A DNA stretch of 32,000 bases, taken from the NCBI GenBank assembly GCA_041395025.1, contig JAWLBH010000001.1:90001-122000 (forward strand). Reading direction: 5' to 3'. A program made the position numbers and the translations under genes. The DNA is from Chlamydiales bacterium (lineage in GTDB: Bacteria; Chlamydiota; Chlamydiia; Chlamydiales; JAAKFR01). How positions within the stretch are numbered: position 1 is the stretch's first letter; every line of letters begins with the position of its first letter. Under the pieces are notes generated by a model. It had not been told where the DNA came from. It searched no databases and saw only the letters and a program-made list of their open reading frames with translations. Positions 1,742 to 24,810 of the stretch are shown piece by piece.

Positions 1742-2830
1742 CTAAATTTTTTGTTGAATACGGTGGTATTTTTTAAAGTCTTTAGATAATTTAGACATCT
1801 TTTCCACGAGCTTGTTAAACCTTCCATTATCTTCTTTAAAATCAGAAAATTCTTCTGTTATAGAACGCAACTGAATCGATATTTGATTTTTAATCTCCTC
1901 GAGGCCTTTGACCTCATCAGTAATTTTTTTTAATGTTTCTTTTTGAAGGGTCATGTTCTCATCGTTAATTTTCAACTGTCCTTCTAACTTGGCAACTTCT
2001 AACAATAAGCTGCATTTTTCTTCTTTCAATGTAGCTATAAGTGACATTAGGTGTTTACTGCACTCTGAAAATTTTAATTCTTTGATATCATCAAAAAGAT
2101 TTTTTACAGTATACATGCTTATTTTCCATGAATTGAATAGATTAGTTACTTCACCTTGCAATTGATTTTTCTCAGTATTTAGATCGACTAAATGTTTTTC
2201 AAAACAAGCCAAGTGTTTTTCAAACACTTCATAACTCTTATTTGTAGCTTGAGAAGTAGACAAAAGACTTTTATTGGCAGATTGAAAATCATGAATCATT
2301 GATTCAATATTGCTTTTCATATTTTTTAAGTTCGTGATTTCTGAACTCATTCTCTCAATGAGAGTTTCGTATTCTTTATTATCTTGTGTTGTTTTTTCTA
2401 ATAAGCTTTTAAATGTCAAGATTGATTGCTTCATTTGCCCATTGTTATGTTTCATAGCTACTACTTCATTTTTTAGATGAGTCTCACTTTTTTGTATTTT
2501 TTTGATAGATTGCTGAAGTTCTATATTATTTGTTTCAAATTTTTTTAAATGCTGAAATTTATAGCTGATATAAATCATGTAGCATGAACTAATAGAGCTT
2601 AATCCAAAAAAAACAATAAAAGGATAGTTATTAACAAACACAGACCAGATAAGAGAAACTTTAGATGCAATAAAAAATAGACCACTTAAATATACTCGCC
2701 ATTTTGAGAGATAAGTAAAGTAAGTTTTTTTTTGAGAATGACTCTTTTGTCTTTGATGCGAATAAGGTAAAGGTTGAAGTTTAGGCCGTTGATATTGAAA
2801 AAGTTGATTAGATAAATACTCACTAGACAT
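1742..2830 (-). CDS. Putative inclusion-membrane (Inc, IncA-like) protein: bilobed hydrophobic domain plus long coiled coil
   Basis: 362 aa. A polar ~45-aa N-terminus is followed by two ~20-aa hydrophobic lobes separated by NNYP (YLSGLFFIASKVSLIWSVFV-NNYP-FIVFFGLSSISSCYMIYISY; aa ~47-90, nt ~2561-2692). The remaining ~260 aa are K/E/L/Q/N-rich heptad-like sequence. I recognise no sequence-level homolog; the call rests on architecture. Confidence 0.5.
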   Translation of the reverse strand: MSSEYLSNQLFQYQRPKLQPLPYSHQRQKSHSQKKTYFTYLSKWRVYLSGLFFIASKVSLIWSVFVNNYPFIVFFGLSSISSCYMIYISYKFQHLKKFETNNIELQQSIKKIQKSETHLKNEVVAMKHNNGQMKQSILTFKSLLEKTTQDNKEYETLIERMSSEITNLKNMKSNIESMIHDFQSANKSLLSTSQATNKSYEVFEKHLACFEKHLVDLNTEKNQLQGEVTNLFNSWKISMYTVKNLFDDIKELKFSECSKHLMSLIATLKEEKCSLLLEVAKLEGQLKINDENMTLQKETLKKITDEVKGLEEIKNQISIQLRSITEEFSDFKEDNGRFNKLVEKMSKLSKDFKKYHRIQQKI

Positions 2831-2896
2831 GTCCTCTAGCTCCTTTAAGAATTTGTTAATGGAGAGGACTATACAGATATGGTTTTTTTTTGAAAT

Positions 2897-4339
2897 CTAT
2901 TCGTGGGTATTTTTGTAAATTTCTTCTTTAATTTCTTTAAGGACTAAAAGTTTCCAATGGGGTTTGCGCATTGAAAATATAATTAGAGGAATAGAAAAAT
3001 TAATTAAAAACCCAGTAATCACGACGATTTCAAAAGGTAATATTTCCATCTTAAAATATTTAACTGGAGGGGTAAAACTAAGAAAAAGAGCCAAAAGAGC
3101 GCTACCAATTCCCATCAATCCTGCAATCCAGATTCCTAAATTTTTGAAAGGAATTTTGTAAACGCGTCGCACATTTGGGTAGCGATAGCGCAAAACAATC
3201 CCAGAAATAAATAACAAAATATACATTAGCAAATACATTTGTGCACTTAAAGCACTTAGTAACCAATAAGCGATGCTTACATTAGGGATGTACAAAAAAA
3301 TAAAAGCAGAGATTGTGACAGCAATCGCCTGAAAAAGCATCAAGTTAACCGGTATATGTCGATCATTAGTTCTATGGAAAATAGGAGGAAGGCAGCCATA
3401 TTCAGTGGTGACAAATAACCCTTTTACACCTGCAATCACCCAAGCATTTATCTCTCCAATACTTCCTAAAATAGTCATTAAAAAGACAATCGGTATAATC
3501 CACTGTAGATGATAGAGATCGAAAAAAAAGCGAAAAGCATCTAAAAGGCCAGAGACTAGACTAATTTTTTCAGGGGGAATGACTATAGCAATGGCCAAAG
3601 AACCTAGAATCAAGATTGCAAGGATAAGAAAGGTTGCCATCAACATTGCACGCGGATAATTTTTTTGGGGGTCTTTAACTTCTCGAGCTAAGTTCGCATT
3701 GGCTTCTAATCCACTCAGTGCAAGAAAAACTCCACTGAGAAAAACCAGATTAGTTGGATTTAAGTCAGGGACAAATTGCATGGATTCAAAAGCCACCATG
3801 CCTTTGGTGATCACCCAGTGTAGGGCCATCCCAATTAGAATTAATCCAGGTAAAATAGCGCCAAAAATTACACAAATTGCACTTACCAAGGCAGAGGTTT
3901 TTATGCCTAGAAAATTTGTAAATGTAATTCCCCAAAATCCAATTATTATCACTGATAAAAGAAAAAATTTACTTTTAGCAAGCTCTGGATCAATAAATTG
4001 AGCAAGAATGGCTCCAACGAAAGCTAGCATAGCAGGATACCAAGTCATATTATGAAACCACTGCATCCAAATAGCAAAAAACCCCCATCGATTACCTAAG
4101 GCTGTCTTCACCCATACATAAATTCCTCCTTCTTTTGGCCATCCAGAAGCAAGCTCTGCTGATATCAGGGCATAAGGAATCATGAAAAATAAAGCAGCGG
4201 CAGAATAAAAAAAGATAGAACTAAATCCATAAGCCGCTGTGAATGGAAGATTGCGTAAACTAATGACAACAGCAAGAGAAAGCATTCCTAATAGAAATAC
4301 ATTAAGCGTTCGGCGTGGTTTAAGAGGTTTTAAATTCAT
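2897..4339 (-). CDS. APC-superfamily amino-acid permease/antiporter
   Basis: 480 aa with about 12 hydrophobic segments. The motif SAELASGWPKEGGIYVWV is characteristic of APC amino-acid transporters (YjeM/GadC-like). Confidence 0.8.
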   Translation of the reverse strand: MNLKPLKPRRTLNVFLLGMLSLAVVISLRNLPFTAAYGFSSIFFYSAAALFFMIPYALISAELASGWPKEGGIYVWVKTALGNRWGFFAIWMQWFHNMTWYPAMLAFVGAILAQFIDPELAKSKFFLLSVIIIGFWGITFTNFLGIKTSALVSAICVIFGAILPGLILIGMALHWVITKGMVAFESMQFVPDLNPTNLVFLSGVFLALSGLEANANLAREVKDPQKNYPRAMLMATFLILAILILGSLAIAIVIPPEKISLVSGLLDAFRFFFDLYHLQWIIPIVFLMTILGSIGEINAWVIAGVKGLFVTTEYGCLPPIFHRTNDRHIPVNLMLFQAIAVTISAFIFLYIPNVSIAYWLLSALSAQMYLLMYILLFISGIVLRYRYPNVRRVYKIPFKNLGIWIAGLMGIGSALLALFLSFTPPVKYFKMEILPFEIVVITGFLINFSIPLIIFSMRKPHWKLLVLKEIKEEIYKNTHE

Positions 4340-8157: not shown

Positions 8158-8508
8158 TTAATTTATAACTTTGAGATTTTTTTGTAAAAATAATATAAAC
8201 AATATAGAAATTAGAAAACCTAAGGGCATAAGAATTGGCATTAGTGAATTGATAGACTGAGCTATAAGCACAGCTGTAGCTCCAACTATCATATTGATAA
8301 AGCTCATAATTGCAGAACCATTTGACTTATCTTCCATACAATCCATAGCAAAACTCGATGCATTATTAAAAACTAGAAATATGCCAAAATAAATAAATGG
8401 AATTGGAAGAAATACAATCCAAAGGTTAATTTTCCCAAAAATAAAGAAAAAAAGCATAGTTGTAATTGCTAAGGCTGAAATTTTTCCTCGTAAGTCATAT
8501 AGACCCAT
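8158..8508 (-). pseudogene. 3' remnant (last ~115 codons, TM10-12) of a DHA1/Bcr-type MFS efflux transporter; 5' two-thirds missing
   Basis: The translation FLVFNNASSFAMDCMEDKSNGSAIMSFINMIVGATAVLIAQ follows the C-terminal Bcr/CflA pattern (N-A-x-x-x-A-M ... G-[ST]-A-S-x-x-x-x-x-x-x-x-x-G-A). Intact members are ~400 aa. The homologous frame runs straight into the GC-rich islet at ~8510, with no upstream MFS sequence on either side. Confidence 0.55.
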
Positions 8509-9296
8509 TGCGTTGCCATCGATGCGTTCGTATTTATGACAATCGAGTCGCCTGAGTTCATAGAAGCAGGAACCGATGGCACGACGACTGAGGCTGGCAG
8601 CTTCTTGAGGGGAGTCTTTCTATGATGGAAAACAAGCTCGACCGCTTTTTTCGCTAAAGCGCTGTCTAAAACATCCAAACGGACCAAAGAGTAAAGATCA
8701 TGGAAATCCTTCATTCTGGTATTGCCTCCTCCTCGGAAAACAATTGTTTCAAGCTTCTCTGCGAAAATGAATTCCTTTGGATAGCAATGCAAAGAAATTC
8801 GGCTTTCAAAGAGCAGGCCTTTCGAAGTGGCTGTCAAATCTATCGGATACTCGATCGGCTCGACGCGGTCTCCGAATCCCAAATCCATGCGGATGACCGT
8901 TTTTGTGGCCCCGAATAGCGCCTGCAAGGTGATCTCAGCCCCTGTGTATGCAAGCTGCGAGTGGTCGAGAATTTTGATTTTAGCCACTTCGAAAGAAAAG
9001 CTGTCATCGGCATCGACATCGCAAATCGCTTGCAGAACTGATCTTAAAGACTGTTCGGTGTTCGACAGCTTTTGAATAAAGAAATCAAGATCCTGCGTTT
9101 CTCTTCCAAGATGAATGTACTTCGCCAGAAGCGTTCCTCCTTTTAAGATGAATTTTTCTTTGTATGAAGACTTTGCTAAGCGCGTAAGAAATCTCTCCAG
9201 GATCAGATTCCTCCAAAGTTCTGCAAAGGTGGTTTCACGCTCCTTCGCCAATGCTTTGATTTTTTCTTTGATTGATTGTTCAATTGCAGATTTCAT
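8469..9296 (-). CDS. abiEii: AbiEii/AbiGii-family nucleotidyltransferase toxin (DUF1814; MenT-like)
   Basis: 275 aa carrying the pol-beta-type NTase motifs described for AbiEii: ILKGGTLL (hGG), DLDFF (DxD), IRMDLGFGD, and FAEKLETIVFRGGGNTRMKDFHDLYSL (KLxxxxxR...RxKDxxDL). The 4-nt ATGA overlap with the upstream antitoxin gene is the classic abiE arrangement. The last ~11-14 codons lie in AT-rich flanking DNA. Confidence 0.85.
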   Translation of the reverse strand: MKSAIEQSIKEKIKALAKERETTFAELWRNLILERFLTRLAKSSYKEKFILKGGTLLAKYIHLGRETQDLDFFIQKLSNTEQSLRSVLQAICDVDADDSFSFEVAKIKILDHSQLAYTGAEITLQALFGATKTVIRMDLGFGDRVEPIEYPIDLTATSKGLLFESRISLHCYPKEFIFAEKLETIVFRGGGNTRMKDFHDLYSLVRLDVLDSALAKKAVELVFHHRKTPLKKLPASVVVPSVPASMNSGDSIVINTNASMATQWVYMTYEEKFQP

Positions 9297-9895
9297 AATG
9301 TAAATGCCGATATATAAGGGGTTAAGTCAACTCTAAGCTTCTTTGCATACTTGAGGAGCTTGTCGATGTCTGGTTTTCTATCCTTGCTTGCTTTCAAATA
9401 AGCTTGCAGAGCCTTCAAAGCGGTTTCCTTGTCTAGATAGCGGAAAGAATCTACAACGGTCCTTTCCCGATCAAAGATCTTGATCTTTCTGCTGCCGATT
9501 TTGACGGTTGTCTGGCCGAAAGAAATATTCCGCATCCGGACAATGCGGGCGTTTTCTCTTGAAGGCGAGGTGGTGGCGTGCGGAATGGCGATCCAAAACT
9601 CCCTCATGATTTCATCCGTCAGCCCGTAATAGCAAAGGGCGGAGATAAGGCAGATGACGCCATTCGGAATGCTTAAAGCGGTTATTGCCAAATCCTCCCA
9701 TTCAAATGCCGAATGGAAATCAATGTCCTTGATTTTATACATCCCCCGGCTGACTTTCTCGATCTGTCCTTTTTGGCAGAAATAAGCCAGCATGCGGGGA
9801 GGGATTCCAGCCTCCCTGCCTTCCGCGGAGGAGAAAACCGCCTTCTTAGAAAGCGCCCTGAAAGCTTCTGAATACTTTGATCTTATCATACCCAT
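9293..9895 (-). CDS. abiEi: AbiEi-family type IV antitoxin / transcriptional autoregulator (N-terminal wHTH)
   Basis: 200 aa. The N-terminal pattern VFSSAEGREAGIPPRMLAYFCQKGQIEKVSRGMYKI matches the AbiEi wHTH signature (...L..l...G.lerv.rG.Y). A C-terminal domain of the usual size follows. The gene sits immediately upstream of, and overlaps, abiEii. Confidence 0.85.
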   Translation of the reverse strand: MGMIRSKYSEAFRALSKKAVFSSAEGREAGIPPRMLAYFCQKGQIEKVSRGMYKIKDIDFHSAFEWEDLAITALSIPNGVICLISALCYYGLTDEIMREFWIAIPHATTSPSRENARIVRMRNISFGQTTVKIGSRKIKIFDRERTVVDSFRYLDKETALKALQAYLKASKDRKPDIDKLLKYAKKLRVDLTPYISAFTL

Positions 9896-9903
9896 AATGT
9901 AAC

Positions 9904-9936
9904 AGAAAAACCCATTAAGCGCAACTGGGTTTTTCT
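9904..9936. promoter_or_regulatory. Inverted repeat AGAAAAACCCA-N11-TGGGTTTTTCT, 9-41 nt upstream of the abiEi start; candidate operator
   Basis: The arms at 9904-9914 and 9926-9936 are perfectly complementary (checked by hand). AbiEi proteins are known to autoregulate by binding inverted repeats in their own promoter region. Confidence 0.35.
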
Positions 9937-10089
9937 ATTACATTTTCATCTCGGAAAACATCTAATAAATCCTTTGAAATAAGATCTTTATATCATAAGG
10001 TCATTAAAGCGTTCAGGTCATAGGCCGACTCATTCAATTGCAGCAGCCTTGTCCGCGCCCTCCGAAAGCTTGACGGCAAACCGCTTAAG

Positions 10090-10320
10090 CTATTTTGCAG
10101 GAGACAAAGGAGCCGGCGCAGGAAGCGCTGGATCCTTATTGATGACCTCGACGGAAATCTTAACGTCGGTGTCTTTTTGAAACGCCTCTTTGTCTACAGT
10201 CAGGCTGATTGCTTCCTGCGTCTCGATATCCTCGATAGCCGTAAAAAGCCCGGGAAGCATTTGAGAGCATCCTGATAAAACCAAAGACAAAATGGAAAGA
10301 GAGATTAAATGATAAAGCAT
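10090..10320 (-). CDS. Small hypothetical lipoprotein (76 aa) encoded on the GC-rich islet
   Basis: The N-terminus MLYHLISLSILSLVLSGCSQ is a signal peptide with a lipobox (L-S-G-C). Composition is GC-rich like abiE. No family recognised. Confidence 0.5.
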   Translation of the reverse strand: MLYHLISLSILSLVLSGCSQMLPGLFTAIEDIETQEAISLTVDKEAFQKDTDVKISVEVINKDPALPAPAPLSPAK

Positions 10321-10461
10321 AAAGCCCCCATGTTAAGTTCTGACAATCCATTCAATGGGTACTTGAGTCAAATAGGGGCTTTAAGAGTGCTTGAGAGTAG
10401 TTAATTCAACGTCTGATAATTTATCTTATGTTGTGATTTCATGTAAATATTTATATCCAAC

Positions 10462-10498: not shown

Positions 10499-10972
10499 AT
10501 GATTCATTCTATTGCCTCTTCTTCTAGCTTCCTTCCTAGGAATTCTTCTAGCTTCCTTCCTAGGAATTGGGAGGAAATCAAACGAAATTTTTTATTCATG
10601 AAATTCCTAACCAAAATTACATTTGTTGTAATCTCAATTCTTGCTCTTTCTGGATCAGTTTCTCTTTCTACACTTTCCTATTCAATGATTGCCCTATCGT
10701 GTCTTAACACCATGATACAAATGTCCAATAATGGATCAAAAGTTGAATTGATATTTTCAATTGGATTGATATCAATAGGGTTTTTAGGTTTGTATAATAT
10801 TCTATCTATCAAATTTTTGGCTATATCATGTATGGTAATCGCAGGTGAGGTACTTATTGCCTCAGCTCTCCTAAGTGTTGTCACTCTTGGTATTCTTGGT
10901 GTATTGATTTACATGGCTGGTTTATTCTGTTATCGCTTTATAAAAGGACTAAGACAAAGAAACAGTATTTAA
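10499..10972 (+). CDS. Small polytopic membrane protein, unknown function (alternative start ATG 10598)
   Basis: 157 aa with about 4 hydrophobic segments. The N-terminus contains the duplicated octapeptide SSSFLPRN. The internal MKFLTKITFVVISILALSGS also looks like a plausible N-terminus. No family recognised. Confidence 0.5.
   Translation: MIHSIASSSSFLPRNSSSFLPRNWEEIKRNFLFMKFLTKITFVVISILALSGSVSLSTLSYSMIALSCLNTMIQMSNNGSKVELIFSIGLISIGFLGLYNILSIKFLAISCMVIAGEVLIASALLSVVTLGILGVLIYMAGLFCYRFIKGLRQRNSI
10519..10566. repeat. Perfect tandem duplication, 2 x 24 bp (ttcttctagcttccttcctaggaa)
   Basis: Copy 1 at 10519-10542 and copy 2 at 10543-10566 are identical by hand alignment. The duplication is in frame and encodes SSSFLPRN twice. 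Confidence 0.9.
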
Positions 10973-19921: not shown

Positions 19922-20247
19922 TAAGAACAATTTTTTCATTTATATCTATATTGATATATAGCTTTACTCTTTATATAATTGGTTAAGCGATCAAAATCAA
20001 TGACGAGGAAAGTGAATTCTTTCTTTTCTTTCAAAAAGAAAAATAAATAAAAAGATCTGTTTTTAGTATGGATTATTTTTATTAGTTTAAATTTCTTATT
20101 CAATTAGGTTGCTCATATCAAAAAATAAAGAGCTTTTAAGGGTTGAATAAAAAAATATTATATTTAAATGCATTTTTTTTTATATGGTGATGAATAGTAA
20201 ACGAAAAAGATTTTATCACTATCATCATTAGGGATTTCTAGGTAATT

Positions 20248-21849
20248 ATGGCAAAAGATTCTTCAATTATTTCACAAACGAGACCTCTCTTATTTAATCA
20301 AAATAAAGAGTTAATATTTACAAATCCTTTATTATCAGAAACAAAATCTGAAAGGATTATTGATCCCTGTATTATAGTGATTTTTGGTGCAACGGGTGAT
20401 TTAACAGCTCGCAAACTTTTCCCTGCCCTTTATAATCTTAAAAGAGAAGGACAACTTCCTATGCACTTTGCATGTGTAGGTTTTGCTAGAAGAAAAAAGA
20501 GCAACGAAACATTTCGTAAAGAGATGCACGATGCAGTAAGCCAATTCTCACGTGTCAAACCATTGGATGAAGACCTGTGGTCTTCATTTATGAATCAGAT
20601 TTTTTATCTTACATCTAATTTTGACGAAGAGGCTGGATACGAATCATTAAGTCAACTACTTCTGCATCTTGATAAAAAATTAGGAACACAAGGAAATCGT
20701 GTTTTTTATCTCTCTACTCAACCAAGTTTTTTTCCAAAAATCATTAAAAATTTGAGCCTCCATCGCTTAATTTATGATTCTAATAAAGAAAAGGAAAAGT
20801 TCTCTCGCGTCATTATTGAAAAACCATTTGGTCATGACTATAAATCAGGTATTGCACTTCAAGAGTTTATTCTAAACCATTTAGTAGAAGATCAAATCTA
20901 TCGTATTGATCATTATCTTGGAAAAGAAACTGTACAAAATATCCTAGTGTTTCGATTTGCTAATTCTATTTTCGAAGCTCTTTGGAATAATCATTATATT
21001 GATCATGTTCAAATTACCGTCGCTGAAGAAATTGGAATTGGATCGCGTGGAGCATTTTATGAAGAAGCGGGAATTTTAAGAGATATTGTACAAAACCATC
21101 TCATGCAGTTAATTTGTTTAACAGCAATGGAACCTCCTGCTGTTCTCAGTACAGAAGCAATTAGAGATGAAAAAGTAAAAATATTGAAGGCTCTACGTCC
21201 TATTGACATGAATAATTTTAACAACTATGTCGTTCGTGGACAATATGGGTCAGGTTATATCAATGGTATTTGTGCTCCAGGATACCGCGAAGAAAATAAT
21301 GTCAGTCCTAAATCTCATATTGAAACTTATGTGGCTTTGAAACTTTATATCGATAATTGGCGATGGGGAGGAGTGCCTTTTTACCTAAGAGCAGGAAAAA
21401 GATTACCAAAACGTACAACTGAAATTGCTGTGAATTTTAAAAAGGTACCAAGAATTCTTTTCTCACAGGAAGGATCAATAAATACTAATAATGTCTTAAT
21501 TATTCGTATTCAGCCTAATGAAGGAATTGCTCTTAGGATAAATTGCAAAGTGCCTGGACCAAGCAGCCCAATTCAACCAGTAAAAATGGATTTTCGCTAC
21601 GGCTCTTATTTTGGTTTAACCCCTCCTGAAGCATACGAACGCTTGATTTGTGACTGTATGCTAGGAGATGGTACCCTTTTTGCAAGGGGAGATGAAGTCC
21701 TTACGTCATGGAAATGGATCACTCCTATACTTGAAAGATGGAGCGAAAATCCACCGACAGATTTTCCAAATTATCCATCAGGATCTTGGGGGCCAAAAGA
21801 ATCTGATGAGATGATGACACATGATGGTCATAGGTGGAGATTGATCTAA
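20248..21849 (+). CDS. zwf: Glucose-6-phosphate 1-dehydrogenase (with ~40-aa N-terminal extension)
   Basis: 533 aa with FGATGDLTARKL (NADP site), the active-site motif RIDHYLGKE, and EKPFG. Confidence 0.96.
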   Translation: MAKDSSIISQTRPLLFNQNKELIFTNPLLSETKSERIIDPCIIVIFGATGDLTARKLFPALYNLKREGQLPMHFACVGFARRKKSNETFRKEMHDAVSQFSRVKPLDEDLWSSFMNQIFYLTSNFDEEAGYESLSQLLLHLDKKLGTQGNRVFYLSTQPSFFPKIIKNLSLHRLIYDSNKEKEKFSRVIIEKPFGHDYKSGIALQEFILNHLVEDQIYRIDHYLGKETVQNILVFRFANSIFEALWNNHYIDHVQITVAEEIGIGSRGAFYEEAGILRDIVQNHLMQLICLTAMEPPAVLSTEAIRDEKVKILKALRPIDMNNFNNYVVRGQYGSGYINGICAPGYREENNVSPKSHIETYVALKLYIDNWRWGGVPFYLRAGKRLPKRTTEIAVNFKKVPRILFSQEGSINTNNVLIIRIQPNEGIALRINCKVPGPSSPIQPVKMDFRYGSYFGLTPPEAYERLICDCMLGDGTLFARGDEVLTSWKWITPILERWSENPPTDFPNYPSGSWGPKESDEMMTHDGHRWRLI

Positions 21850-21850
21850 T

Positions 21851-22945
21851 ATGGTAGTGAGCAAAAATCCAATTGAGCTTACCGATATCAATCAAGAACT
21901 CAATCAACTTTGGGATAAGGAACAAGGTAAAAATACCACTCGTGCCTCATTATTTACCTTAATTGTCTATGTTTCAAAAAATACAAAATTAAATTCTTCT
22001 GAGACTTTAATTAAATCTGTAATTAGTAAATTTCCTTGTCGTATTATCCTAGTCATAAGAAGTGATGATCAAAAAGAAACCTATCTACGTACAAGCATTG
22101 CTTCAGAAACAGTCAGTCAAGGTGAATTTCAAATTTTTTGTGAAATCATTAAGATTGAAGTTGCTGGGCCTTTAATAGAAAGGGTGGCTTTTATTATTAC
22201 TCCACAGATTCTTCCTGATTTGCCTGTTTATCTTTTATGGAGATACAACCCAGCCATAGAAAATCTCATCCTTCCTGCTCTAGAACGGATTGCTGATCGA
22301 ATTATATTTGATCCTGAATCAACTTATCATCTGCAAAGATATGCTCAAGTAGTCTCATCTTTTTTAAACCAATTTCATTGTAGAATCGGTGATCTCAAAT
22401 GGAGTAAAATTTCAGGTTGGCGACATCTTTTTGTACAAGTTTTTGATCACTCAGATGCTTTAAAAAAGCTTTTAGAAAGTAAAGTTATTCAGATTTTTTA
22501 TAATAAAAAAAAATCTGAATATCAAGAACATACGGAAATCGAAGCCGCCTATTTACAAGCCTGGATAGCCACAAGGCTTAACTGGAAATTTCAAGCAATT
22601 GAAATAAAAAAGAATCAAATTTACCTTACTTATTTTAATCAGGGAAAGATAGTCACAATCATCATGATTCCTGAGTATCTTCCTGTACTTGCTCCTGGAA
22701 TGATTACTAAAATTGAGATAGAATCTGTAAAGAATCAATCTCGTTATATCTTTAAACATCATCCTGAGACTCGCCAAGTTTTTATCGAATATGCTGATCA
22801 AAACTACTGTGATATTCCTATTTGTATGTATCTTCCAGAAGTTTCTGAAGGTCAAGAAATTATTGAAGAAATTTTTCATCCTTCAGTAGATTTTCACTAC
22901 TACGAAATCCTGCAGCTTTTACAATCAATTTCTTGGGAAAGTTAA
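21851..22945 (+). CDS. opcA: OpcA-like glucose-6-phosphate dehydrogenase assembly/effector protein
   Basis: 364 aa, collinear with actinobacterial and cyanobacterial OpcA as I recall them. Ours versus M. tuberculosis OpcA: TRASLFTLIVY vs GRVLTLIV; KFPCRIILVI vs EHPCRVIVV; LPDLPVYLLW vs LPDTPVVAWW; DLKWSKISGWRHLF vs DLAWSRITYWRALL. It is wedged between zwf and pgl with 1-nt gaps. Confidence 0.8.
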   Translation: MVVSKNPIELTDINQELNQLWDKEQGKNTTRASLFTLIVYVSKNTKLNSSETLIKSVISKFPCRIILVIRSDDQKETYLRTSIASETVSQGEFQIFCEIIKIEVAGPLIERVAFIITPQILPDLPVYLLWRYNPAIENLILPALERIADRIIFDPESTYHLQRYAQVVSSFLNQFHCRIGDLKWSKISGWRHLFVQVFDHSDALKKLLESKVIQIFYNKKKSEYQEHTEIEAAYLQAWIATRLNWKFQAIEIKKNQIYLTYFNQGKIVTIIMIPEYLPVLAPGMITKIEIESVKNQSRYIFKHHPETRQVFIEYADQNYCDIPICMYLPEVSEGQEIIEEIFHPSVDFHYYEILQLLQSISWES

Positions 22946-22946
22946 T

Positions 22947-23696
22947 ATGAAAAAAAACATTGTATGCGATGAACGCCGCTTGATTCAGATTCCTGGAAAC
23001 TACGATCAAACCATTCTCTTTGCTGTAGATAAATGGATTGAATATGCAAACGAATCAATTAAAGATCATAATTTTTTCTCTGTTGCGCTATCAGGAGGAA
23101 CAACTCCAAAAGCAATCTTTCAAAAGCTTGTAAACCAAGCTCATCTTATTGACTGGTCAAAAATTTATGTTTTTTGGAGTGATGAACGTAGTGTATTACC
23201 CTGTCATCCTGAAAGCAATTACCGAATGGCAATGGAAGAAAGTGGATTGGAAAAATTACCTATTCCTAAAAATCAAATATATAGAATGGTGGCTGAATCT
23301 GATATTGAAAGAAATGCGACTAATTATGAAAAGATCATTCAAAGAGTACTTGGAACGCATCCATTTGATCTGATTATGCTTGGACTAGGAGATGATGGAC
23401 ATACAGCTTCACTTTTTCCAAATACTCAAGGTTTAATAGCTAAAGACCAACTGATCGTGGCAAATTACATTCCACAAAAAAATACGTGGAGAATGACCAT
23501 GACATATAAATGTATTAATAGCGCACGCCATACTTGTATGTATGTTTTAGGATCAAAAAAAATTAAAATCATAGAGAAAATTTTAACCTCTGACTACAAT
23601 TATAAAAATTATCCAGCACAAAATATCGGAACGAAACTTAACCCTTCCCTATGGATTTTAGATAAAGAGGCAAGTAAAAAAATCTATTTGTATTAA
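22947..23696 (+). CDS. pgl: 6-phosphogluconolactonase
   Basis: 249 aa with ALSGGTTPK, WSDERSV and LGLGDDGHTASLFP, the DevB/Pgl signature. Confidence 0.93.
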   Translation: MKKNIVCDERRLIQIPGNYDQTILFAVDKWIEYANESIKDHNFFSVALSGGTTPKAIFQKLVNQAHLIDWSKIYVFWSDERSVLPCHPESNYRMAMEESGLEKLPIPKNQIYRMVAESDIERNATNYEKIIQRVLGTHPFDLIMLGLGDDGHTASLFPNTQGLIAKDQLIVANYIPQKNTWRMTMTYKCINSARHTCMYVLGSKKIKIIEKILTSDYNYKNYPAQNIGTKLNPSLWILDKEASKKIYLY

Positions 23697-23814
23697 ACAA
23701 AAAGCTAATTTATTAAAAGACACTAAATTTGAATAAAACTCATGATTTTTTAGAAAACAGATTTAGATAAATCAATCGACGAAATTCTCTCTTTCGATCA
23801 TAATTTATTTACAA

Positions 23815-24810
23815 ATGTTAGTACTTGGAATTGAAACAACATGTGATGAGACAGGAATAGCTCTTGTTTCAAAAGGTCATGAGATTTTATCAAATGTAGT
23901 AGCCACTCAGGATGAACTCCATAGTAGCTATGGAGGAGTTGTTCCAGAAATTGCATCAAGACGTCATATTGATGTACTTCTACCTTTGCTTGAAAAAGCC
24001 CTTTTTGATTCTTTTGATGCAATTGATTTGATAGCTGTAGCAAATGGGCCAGGTTTAATTGGCCCACTTTTAATTGGGATTAACTTTGCAAAAGGATTGG
24101 CTTTTTCATCAAACAAGCCCCTTGTAGGAGTGAATCATGTTGAAGCTCATCTCTATTCAGCTCTGATGGGGTTGTCTCCACCACTTCCCTCTCTTGGCGT
24201 AGTCATATCTGGAGGACATACCTTATTAGCATTTATTGAAAAGATAGGTACTTATACTCTTATTGGGCAAACTCAAGATGATGCAATAGGAGAAGCTTTT
24301 GATAAAGTCGCTAAAATTCTCGGTCTCCCTTATCCAGGGGGTGCACATATTGAAAAACTTGCTCTGCAGGGCGACCCACATCGATTTCGTTTTAAAGCTG
24401 GTAAAATCAAAGGACGTCCTTTTGACTTTTCTTTTAGTGGATTAAAAACAGCCCTTCTTTACCTTGCTAAGGGGCAGAATGCAAACCAGAATTCTCCCTT
24501 GCTTCTTTCTGAGAAAGATAGGCAAGATGCAGCTGCAAGTTTTCAATATGTAGCTTTTTCTGATCTTGTAAAAAAAATCTGTTCTAGTGCAAAACTGTAT
24601 TCTTGCAAAAGTATTTTAGTAGGAGGTGGAGTCAGTATCAACCACTGTTTTCGTGATCTTCTTGAACAAAAATCATCGCTCCCCATCTTGTGGCCTTCAC
24701 AAGATCTTTGCCTAGATAATGGAGCAATGATTGCAGGTCTTGGTTACCATGTCTTTCTTAAGCATGGTCAATCAAAAGATATGAAAGCAAATCCTGGCGC
24801 ATCTCTTTAA
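23815..24810 (+). CDS. tsaD: tRNA N6-adenosine threonylcarbamoyltransferase (Gcp/Kae1 family)
   Basis: 331 aa with MLVLGIETTCDETGIALV, GVNHVEAHL and GGGVS.N motifs. Confidence 0.95.
   Translation: MLVLGIETTCDETGIALVSKGHEILSNVVATQDELHSSYGGVVPEIASRRHIDVLLPLLEKALFDSFDAIDLIAVANGPGLIGPLLIGINFAKGLAFSSNKPLVGVNHVEAHLYSALMGLSPPLPSLGVVISGGHTLLAFIEKIGTYTLIGQTQDDAIGEAFDKVAKILGLPYPGGAHIEKLALQGDPHRFRFKAGKIKGRPFDFSFSGLKTALLYLAKGQNANQNSPLLLSEKDRQDAAASFQYVAFSDLVKKICSSAKLYSCKSILVGGGVSINHCFRDLLEQKSSLPILWPSQDLCLDNGAMIAGLGYHVFLKHGQSKDMKANPGASL

Follow-up and report, generated by a model that had tools for sequence, protein, structure and literature searches.

A GC-rich islet with a truncated AbiE module in a Chlamydiales chromosome: the probable remnant of a Criblamydia-type phage-plasmid

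The DNA analysed here, called the window throughout, is a stretch of 32,000 nucleotides of a Chlamydiales bacterium (GenBank assembly GCA_041395025.1, contig JAWLBH010000001.1, positions 90,001 to 122,000 of the forward strand). Our subject is a GC-rich islet of about 1.9 kb within it, which holds three open reading frames (ORFs) on the minus strand: a gene for a small lipoprotein, and the antitoxin and toxin genes, abiEi and abiEii, of an AbiE module. A first, sequence-only reading of this DNA had listed the three ORFs correctly but had overlooked the truncation of abiEii and the make-up of the islet, a mosaic assembled from two pieces. With good confidence we consider the islet to be what deletions have left of a phage-plasmid of the type found in Criblamydia, which entered this AT-rich chromosome recently.

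In base composition the islet jumps sharply from its surroundings, as that reading had claimed. Positions 8505-10400 have 45.1% GC against 33.7% for the remaining window, and the highest GC content of all 1896-bp segments in it (mean 34.6%, standard deviation 3.0); the same GC-rich block is visible in the 200-bp profile. The GC content at third codon positions (GC3) amounts to 0.48 in abiEii, 0.56 in abiEi, and 0.48 in the lipoprotein gene, and to 0.18-0.24 in nine flanking host genes. Tetranucleotide usage is most distant from that of the remaining window in the segment starting at 8501 (z = 10.4, relative to segments outside the islet), and the distance in dinucleotide relative abundance gives z = 5.5. 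Of two G+C counts made by hand, 34 in 60 nucleotides at 9541-9600 is exact, while 10 in 60 at 8161-8220 should be 9. The left edge, placed near 8505-8515 in the first reading, is indeed sharp at ca. 8500-8515, where the 30-bp GC content rises from 0.33 (8480-8509) to 0.53 (8500-8529). The right edge fades, as had been seen, but by homology the foreign DNA ends at ca. 10433 and not at ca. 10400: the fading is due to the AT-richer, element-derived region upstream of the lipoprotein gene, and the last ca. 35 bp of the islet are the element's own AT-rich intergenic region.

Homology was assessed by BLAST against loci fetched through the homologues of AbiEii and of the lipoprotein (874 kb in total; individual loci are given by their L numbers), and it divides the islet into two modules, here called B and A, that abut exactly between positions 10038 and 10039. 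Module B (8589-10038) comprises the truncated abiEii, abiEi with its putative operator, and the final 45 nt of terL, a gene for the terminase large subunit. It is 95.5% identical in nucleotide sequence to L025-L027, metagenome contigs of ca. 45% GC in which the gene order is N6/N4 methylase, a 158-aa protein, terL (449 aa), abiEi, abiEii, an 83-aa protein, and a tyrosine integrase. Module A (10039-10433) comprises ca. 49 nt of the 3' end of a RecT-like gene, the lipoprotein gene, and the region upstream of the latter. Over 10039-10431 it is 94.4% identical to L022-L024 and 90.6% to L012-L017 (44-46% GC), values that hold for the upstream region as well; these alignments stop at 10431-10433, and the right breakpoint lies at ca. 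10433-10436. The module-A contigs with 12-16 kb of flank (L012-L014 and L018) carry genes for ParA, a 781-aa primase/DnaB-like helicase, a 548-aa protein, the RecT-like protein, and a PD-(D/E)XK exonuclease, and the shorter ones RecT-like and exonuclease genes only. In L012 and L022 the lipoprotein gene is convergent on the RecT-like gene, whose 296-aa product matches the PHROG family of RecT-like single-stranded DNA annealing proteins.

At the junction of the two modules each side ends in the 3' scar of a gene. The terL homology begins at position 3468 of L025, inside terL (2164-3513; PHROG terminase large subunit, 1.7e-165), and the scar translates to LNESAYDLNALMTL followed by a stop, as do the last 45 nt of L025 terL (stop codon TAA in L025, TGA in the window). 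Across the junction the window agrees with the recT side as far as ...GGCTGCTGC(A), and from ATTGAATGAG... onward with the terL side; the microhomology is at most 1-2 bp. Both scars appear to mark deletion junctions. In the 80 metagenome abiE loci the lipoprotein gene never lies next to abiEi, and the fused arrangement was not seen elsewhere. Nothing else of the 32-kb window derives from the element, tblastx matches being confined to 8524-10455. The pair of genes for 296-aa and 199-aa proteins beside the lipoprotein gene was considered as a second AbiE pair and rejected: the products match RecT-like proteins and, weakly, an exonuclease family. Two contigs with otherwise typical terL-abiE-integrase blocks have ca. 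2.5 kb inserted between abiEii and the gene for the 83-aa protein (L041, 3288-5822; L043, 8261-10795).

The donor search by BLAST that the first reading had proposed leads to a family of chlamydial phage-plasmids. The only plasmid in PLSDB that holds both modules is plasmid 1 of Criblamydia sequanensis CRIB-18 (NZ_LK031773.1, 89.5 kb; L031/L032 among our loci), to which the abiE DNA of the window is 82.7% identical. Window and plasmid have in common the order and orientation abiEii (minus), abiEi (minus), terL (minus), RecT-like gene (plus), and lipoprotein gene (minus), the two modules lying ca. 27 kb apart on the plasmid (table 1). The plasmid also carries a complete, myovirus-like head-and-tail set (portal DUF1073, minor head protein, DUF2184 capsid, DUF3383 sheath, tail chaperone, baseplate, and spike), and its gene content looks like that of a phage-plasmid. 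Its backbone (ParA, primase-helicase, RecT-like protein and exonuclease, terL, portal, sheath, integrase, and two abiE pairs) recurs at 76-99% amino acid identity in over 30 contigs from metagenomes, among them L012-L021, L025, L035-L043, L057, L075, and L078; in the contigs compared with the plasmid the identities range from 46% upward. No match was obtained in IMG/VR (searched by AbiEii) or among the INPHARED phages (searched by DNA), and no paper calling these chlamydial replicons phage-plasmids was found in the literature searched. Gene families of a 'phage group', including terminase, have been described on the plasmids of C. sequanensis and P. massiliensis (Köstlbacher et al. 2021, PMC7846284). 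Beside its portal gene the Criblamydia plasmid has another, divergent abiEi-abiEii pair (L032 44995-46451, record 87994-89450) with ca. 47% amino acid identity to the first, and the same arrangement occurs in L075 and L078. To our knowledge only Microviridae phages have been characterised experimentally for Chlamydiota.

Table 1. Features of the islet and its left border in the window, and their counterparts on plasmid 1 of C. sequanensis CRIB-18
Sequence	Feature	Coordinates	Strand	Basis or remark
Window	MFS transporter pseudogene remnant, last ca. 100-120 codons	8158-8529 (ORF 8158-8508)	-	phmmer
Window	GC-rich junction segment, 83 bp, 51% GC	8505-8588	.	between abiEii breakpoint and MFS remnant
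Window	abiEii', toxin gene, codons 1-236 only	8589-9296	-	Pfam/PADLOC and homologue alignments
Window	abiEi, antitoxin/repressor gene, full length	9293-9895	-	PADLOC, Pfam
Window	Inverted repeat, putative AbiEi operator in abiE promoter	9896-9944	.	repeat search
Window	terL scar, last 14 codons and stop	9993-10038	-	alignment to L025
Window	RecT-like gene scar, last ca. 16 codons, 1-nt indel	10039-10088	+	alignment to L012, L022
Window	76-aa lipoprotein gene, lipobox LSGC	10090-10320	-	56 homologues
Window	Element-derived region upstream of lipoprotein gene, AT-richer	10321-10433	.	DNA alignment
NZ_LK031773.1	Integrase	19982-20965		annotation
NZ_LK031773.1	abiEii	21620-22480	-	annotation; abiEi (-) next
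NZ_LK031773.1	terL	23177-24526	-	annotation; then methylase, DUF1064, metal-resistance cargo
NZ_LK031773.1	RecT-like gene	49177-50100	+	annotation; preceded by small genes, PD-(D/E)XK, 199-aa gene
NZ_LK031773.1	Lipoprotein homologue	50318-50557	-	annotation; then 548-aa gene, DnaB-like helicase, ParA, head-and-tail set

In the 32-kb window replication and partition genes, packaging and structural genes, and integrase genes are all lacking, terL and recT being present only as scars of 45-49 nt; for this reason we regard the islet as a remnant and not as a functional member of the family. ORF, tRNA, and repeat searches bear out the earlier statement that mobility features are missing: there is no tRNA in the window, no integrase or transposase in any window ORF of at least 120 aa, and no flanking direct or inverted repeat above chance at the islet borders. 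The tRNA or att target, flanking direct repeats, and integrase of a classical genomic island were thus all sought and not found in the islet.

The AbiE systems, reclassified as type VII (bioRxiv 10.64898/2026.01.19.700257), consist of an antitoxin and a DUF1814 nucleotidyltransferase toxin that stops growth and whose motifs I-IV are required for nucleotide binding and toxicity (PMC3985639). The antitoxin gene of the islet is complete. Its product matches the PADLOC AbiEi profile over positions 4-196 of 197 (6.2e-79), the winged helix-turn-helix (wHTH) at its N-terminus matches Pfam AbiEi_4 (PF13338), and the layout is that of an AbiE antitoxin, in which the wHTH is followed by an antitoxicity domain at the C-terminus and whose gene takes the upstream place in the operon. 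The stop codon of abiEi overlaps the start of abiEii by 4 nt (9293-9296). The true start of AbiEi is likely Met3 at 9889, giving 198 aa, and not the annotated Met1 at 9895, because 198 aa is the length of most homologues and in L037 the codon opposite Met1 is a stop. Directly upstream of abiEi lies an inverted repeat with 19-nt arms (9896-9914 and 9926-9944) that are 95% complementary and separated by an 11-nt spacer; the palindrome gives a self-inverted BLAST match in every homologous locus. The AbiEi of Streptococcus agalactiae binds inverted repeats in its promoter (PMC3985639), and the repeat in the window, which resembles that operator, is a putative AbiEi operator.

The toxin gene, by contrast with the full-length antitoxin gene, is cut short. 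AbiEii matches Pfam PF08843 (DUF1814 nucleotidyltransferase; 4.3e-36) over profile positions 1-198 of 238 only and the PADLOC AbiEii profile (2.2e-66) over positions 10-229 of 294, and more than 100 homologues (285-286 aa, 80-98% identity) all align solely to its residues 1-236. Homology to the full-length toxin of ca. 286 aa therefore stops at residue 236: the C-terminal ca. 50 residues of the family are missing, the DNA alignment to the homologues breaks sharply at 8589, and past codon 236 the ORF continues for 39 further, unrelated codons until it meets a stop at 8469. Within residues 1-236 all four catalytic motifs can be recognised (KGG, DLDF, AEK..FRG, and KDFHD for motifs I-IV), matched by eye to the strings of chain 9hlo_B through an alignment of the 97%-identical full-length protein P0010. 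They may correspond to G49/50, D67/69, K173/R180, and D192 of the published system (PMC3985639), a correspondence that is our own reading of an alignment without per-residue chain numbers. The region lost in the window lies within the solved chain PDB 9hlo_B, and AbiEi is reported to contact the C-terminus of the toxin (bioRxiv 10.64898/2026.01.19.700257); in the solved homologue the lost ca. 50 residues are part of the folded C-terminal domain and of the interface with AbiEi. From the truncation we infer that the AbiEii of the window is inactive or attenuated. Compared with the AbiE of S. agalactiae and Lactococcus (Dy et al. 2014, PMC3985639), the islet is thus alike in its bicistronic abiEi-abiEii arrangement with 4-nt overlap, in an antitoxin made of wHTH and C-terminal domain, in the DUF1814 toxin motifs I-IV, and in the promoter inverted repeat; it differs in that the last ca. 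50 residues of the toxin are swapped for 39 unrelated ones, and there is probably no working toxin. At 8469-8508 the truncated abiEii ORF runs 40 nt into the remnant of a transporter gene in another frame, and these two overlapping, pseudogene-like ORFs could be mis-annotated as two intact genes.

The 76-aa lipoprotein has 56 homologues with 62-97% identity, in which the G-C of the lipobox is invariant and which share a highly conserved, invariant core of ca. 40 residues; no protein-family match was obtained for it in Pfam and PADLOC profile searches. In the contigs with ParA and primase-helicase genes its gene always adjoins the RecT-like gene, and it is a conserved accessory gene of the phage-plasmid family. 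Beyond the right breakpoint the plus-strand ORF 10499-10972 encodes a 157-aa multi-pass membrane protein with no family match; a perfect 24-bp tandem duplication at 10519-10566 gives the peptide SSSFLPRN twice at its N-terminus.

On the left the islet borders on the remains of a transporter gene. ORF 8158-8508 matches residues ca. 290-390 of proteins of 395-412 aa (phmmer, 1.8 billion representatives), which belong to Pfam MFS_1, and no N-terminal part of such a protein was found anywhere in the window by tblastn. The remnant is host-like in composition (GC 28.5%, GC3 0.21), and its tblastn alignment to the closest homologue, P0297, extends to 8529, into GC3-rich codons. The islet appears to sit in place of the 5' two-thirds of the MFS gene. 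For the 83-bp segment that separates the abiEii breakpoint from this remnant no homologue was found by blastn-short or tblastx in the 874 kb of loci, including the whole Criblamydia plasmid. A frameshifted 3' end of abiEii was rejected as its source, there being no match in any frame, and a weak tblastx match in L045/L046 (E = 0.04) falls in none of the ORFs (70 aa or longer) that this 4.5-kb contig holds in full and is probably accidental. The segment could represent filler, a fragment of unsampled cargo, or a stretch of an MFS orthologue richer in GC.

The other window ORFs of at least 120 aa are all housekeeping genes: BrkB, an amino-acid permease, aldolase, MetNIQ, Glk, an M19 dipeptidase, aconitase, Sua5, KdsB, CTP synthase, RuvX, G6PD, OpcA, Pgl, TsaD, Opp, and PPIase. 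According to the first reading the islet interrupts a run of core genes from metNIQ to glk. The nearest relatives, L009-L011 (Glk 65-67% identical), keep the synteny G6PD...Sua5-acn-M19-glk; beyond glk a conserved run was not shown, because just past this gene the three loci diverge or end, without homologues of the MFS gene, metQ, or the 157-aa ORF. The comparison of the metQ-glk interval with relatives, from which an empty site with an intact MFS gene had been hoped for, consequently yielded none in L009-L011, which are too distant for this purpose, and a scan of genome contigs with Glk added only an unrelated Fibrobacteraceae locus. Look-ups of exact sequences, made with AbiEi and Glk of the window and with P0121, gave no match. 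The host has 34% GC and a GC3 of ca. 0.2, and its relatives L009 (GCA_020831465.1, JAFIGI010000048.1) and L010 have 47-48% GC with the same gene order; their Glk, aconitase, M19, and Sua5 proteins are 62-82% identical to those of the host. This suggests a strong AT drift in the small-genome lineage of the host, whose contig measures 1.32 Mb.

The history that we propose starts from a large stretch of the element that would once have been contiguous here or in the immediate donor DNA. It would have entered in or beside the MFS gene, brought in either by the integrase that it carried or through illegitimate recombination of the chromosome with a plasmid, be it resident or incoming. Since window and plasmid agree in order and orientation, one internal deletion (ca. 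27 kb on the Criblamydia layout), joining the 3' end of terL to that of the RecT-like gene, would account for the junction between 10038 and 10039. A deletion on the abiEii side would have removed the last ca. 50 toxin codons, the genes for the 83-aa and a 93-aa protein, the integrase, and neighbouring DNA as far as a point inside the MFS gene, and one on the lipoprotein side the replication and structural part, with everything past ca. 10433. With microhomology of at most 1-2 bp the junctions would be illegitimate, and the integrase, tRNA, and flanking repeats would be absent from the window because they were deleted. That the end of the toxin was lost before the antitoxin would be the order that a toxin-antitoxin (TA) module tolerates, in which the toxin may go first but never the antitoxin; the truncation is likewise consistent with a deletion that reached the operon from its 3' side. 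Both a decayed mobile element and illegitimate recombination, named as options in the sequence-only reading, gain support from modules that are 94-95% identical to phage-plasmid parts and from the scars at their junctions, whereas the unrecognised insertion mechanism named beside them becomes unnecessary once the parent element is identified.

Intermediates of such decay occur elsewhere. L002 has terL fragments, abiE, and the integrase beside PriA and LysRS; L005, L038, L040, and L098 keep abiE with terL scars; and L007/L008, from the complete genome of a Rhabdochlamydiaceae symbiont of Dictyostelium, have abiE alone. In L007 (OZ197277.1, 9351-10861) the abiE pair, 76% identical in DNA to that of the window, has 36% GC against 40% in its flanks, the reverse of the situation in the window, and is probably an older, compositionally adapted resident copy. 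The window lineage has ca. 1.4% private substitutions, 17 of them synonymous and 3 non-synonymous (9 and 1 in abiEi), a bias from which it follows that most of the divergence accrued while both genes were under selection. Amelioration, as an excess of GC-to-AT changes in the window lineage, was looked for and rejected, there being no difference from L025. The acquisition looks recent, because private changes are few and show no extra AT shift, while the housekeeping proteins of the host are only 62-82% identical to those of its nearest relatives.

Several points weigh against this history. The order and orientation of the two pieces would match those of the plasmid by chance in about 1 of 4 cases, and the internal deletion could have taken place on a plasmid, before the capture by the chromosome. 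No integrase or att site is left to show the route of entry, no empty site was found in a relative, so that insertion at this exact locus is deduced, and the 83 bp at 8505-8588 match none of the fetched loci. The loss of toxin function is a prediction from the truncation, and the window derives from a metagenome-assembled genome (MAG). The most serious competitor, which we consider possible though unlikely, is a piecemeal capture, in which the element as a whole never integrated and one or two small fragments of a co-resident or incoming phage-plasmid, perhaps already carrying the deletion, were patched in illegitimately, for instance in repairing a break in the MFS gene. It agrees with the lack of homology or att-like repeats at any junction and of an integrase or att remnant in the window, with the resemblance of the orphan 83-bp segment to filler DNA, and with the frequency of plasmid-to-chromosome gene flow in Chlamydiae (PMC7846284). 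It explains less readily that the pieces keep the order and orientation of the plasmid and abut exactly, an arrangement most simply derived from one continuous stretch that included the DNA between them, or that larger intermediates elsewhere still carry the integrase. The sole difference between piecemeal capture and the history proposed above is where the deletions happened.

The junction on the left bears on another route, homology-facilitated illegitimate recombination with DNA of another chlamydial chromosome in which an eroded abiE lay beside an MFS orthologue, so that the left junction would be a homologous crossover within the MFS gene and the right one illegitimate. In the MFS frame the 83 bp read ...RRLDC..ERIDG.., like ...RRERLDC... 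in P0297, the MFS alignment by tblastn reaches the GC3-rich codons up to 8529, and the nearest relatives of the host have 47-48% GC; yet the likeness spans only 4-6 residues and could be due to chance, and in none of the fetched abiE loci does an MFS gene adjoin abiEii, which makes this route improbable. An assembly chimera, with plasmid-derived reads stitched into the chromosome of the MAG, would agree with the metagenomic source and with a composition abruptly unlike both flanks. Against it stand the three non-repeat junctions that it requires over 1.9 kb (8505/8589, 10038/10039, and ca. 10433), the truncated genes, seen in this form in no sampled element, the lack of border repeats to mislead an assembler, and comparable abiE remnants, likewise eroded, in assemblies independent of this one, a complete genome among them; we consider a chimera very improbable. 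Since the minimal unit of operator, abiEi, and abiEii occurs in many unrelated contexts, the pair might also be taken for a self-mobile cassette, moving by an unrecognised mechanism independently of plasmids and phages. The terL scar in the window copy and in several others ties them to the terL-abiE-integrase block, terminal repeats and target duplications are lacking, precise cassette ends with a common recombination site were not seen across the loci, and some copies adjoin transposase fragments, an ordinary route, so that we give this idea hardly any credence.

The eroded phage-plasmid that we favour has parallels among known systems. With the C. sequanensis plasmid and its 'phage group' genes (PMC7846284) the islet shares the terL-abiE and RecT-like/lipoprotein modules in order and orientation, the block on the plasmid also having an integrase; it differs in being of 1.9 kb only, in lying in a chromosome, and in having the modules fused instead of ca. 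27 kb apart. Like the type IV secretion system island of Protochlamydia amoebophila and tetC in Chlamydia suis (cited in PMC7846284), it consists of plasmid-family genes of atypical composition in a chlamydial chromosome, but it is far smaller, heavily eroded, and derived from the phage-like part and not from secretion system or core plasmid genes. A further likeness is to cryptic prophages: the islet is alike in that a TA or abortive-infection module has survived longest, together with the gene for a small lipoprotein, but its parent differs, being a plasmid-like replicon with ParA and primase-helicase and not a classical integrated prophage, and no att site is recognisable. Cryptic or defective prophage remnants have lost their mobility and structural genes and kept defence or addiction genes.

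Evidently, the missing mobility genes reflect the erosion of a known kind of element and not a new mechanism of insertion. Transfer of whole plasmids between chlamydial families is known, and plasmid genes often integrate into the chromosomes of Chlamydiae (PMC7846284); to this plasmid-to-chromosome gene flow the islet adds a new and well-resolved instance, with an AbiE of a known family. It represents a cleanly dissected case of transfer from a plasmid or phage to the chromosome, in a lineage of obligate intracellular bacteria whose genome is small and AT-drifted; a TA module is the last piece left, and its toxin is cut. More tentatively, and with rather less than even confidence, the islet may record infection by an active, broad-host-range family of tailed phage-plasmids of Chlamydiota. 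The abiE remnants are 76-96% identical in DNA in chromosomes whose housekeeping proteins are only ca. 65% identical, and on this reading they would imply recent spread across chlamydial families, the AbiE module outlasting the rest. As a wider by-product, the megaplasmid type of C. sequanensis has the look of a phage-plasmid whose uncultured relatives are many and apparently widespread; by way of such phage-plasmids environmental chlamydiae could exchange genes, and they could also be candidates for a genetic tool.

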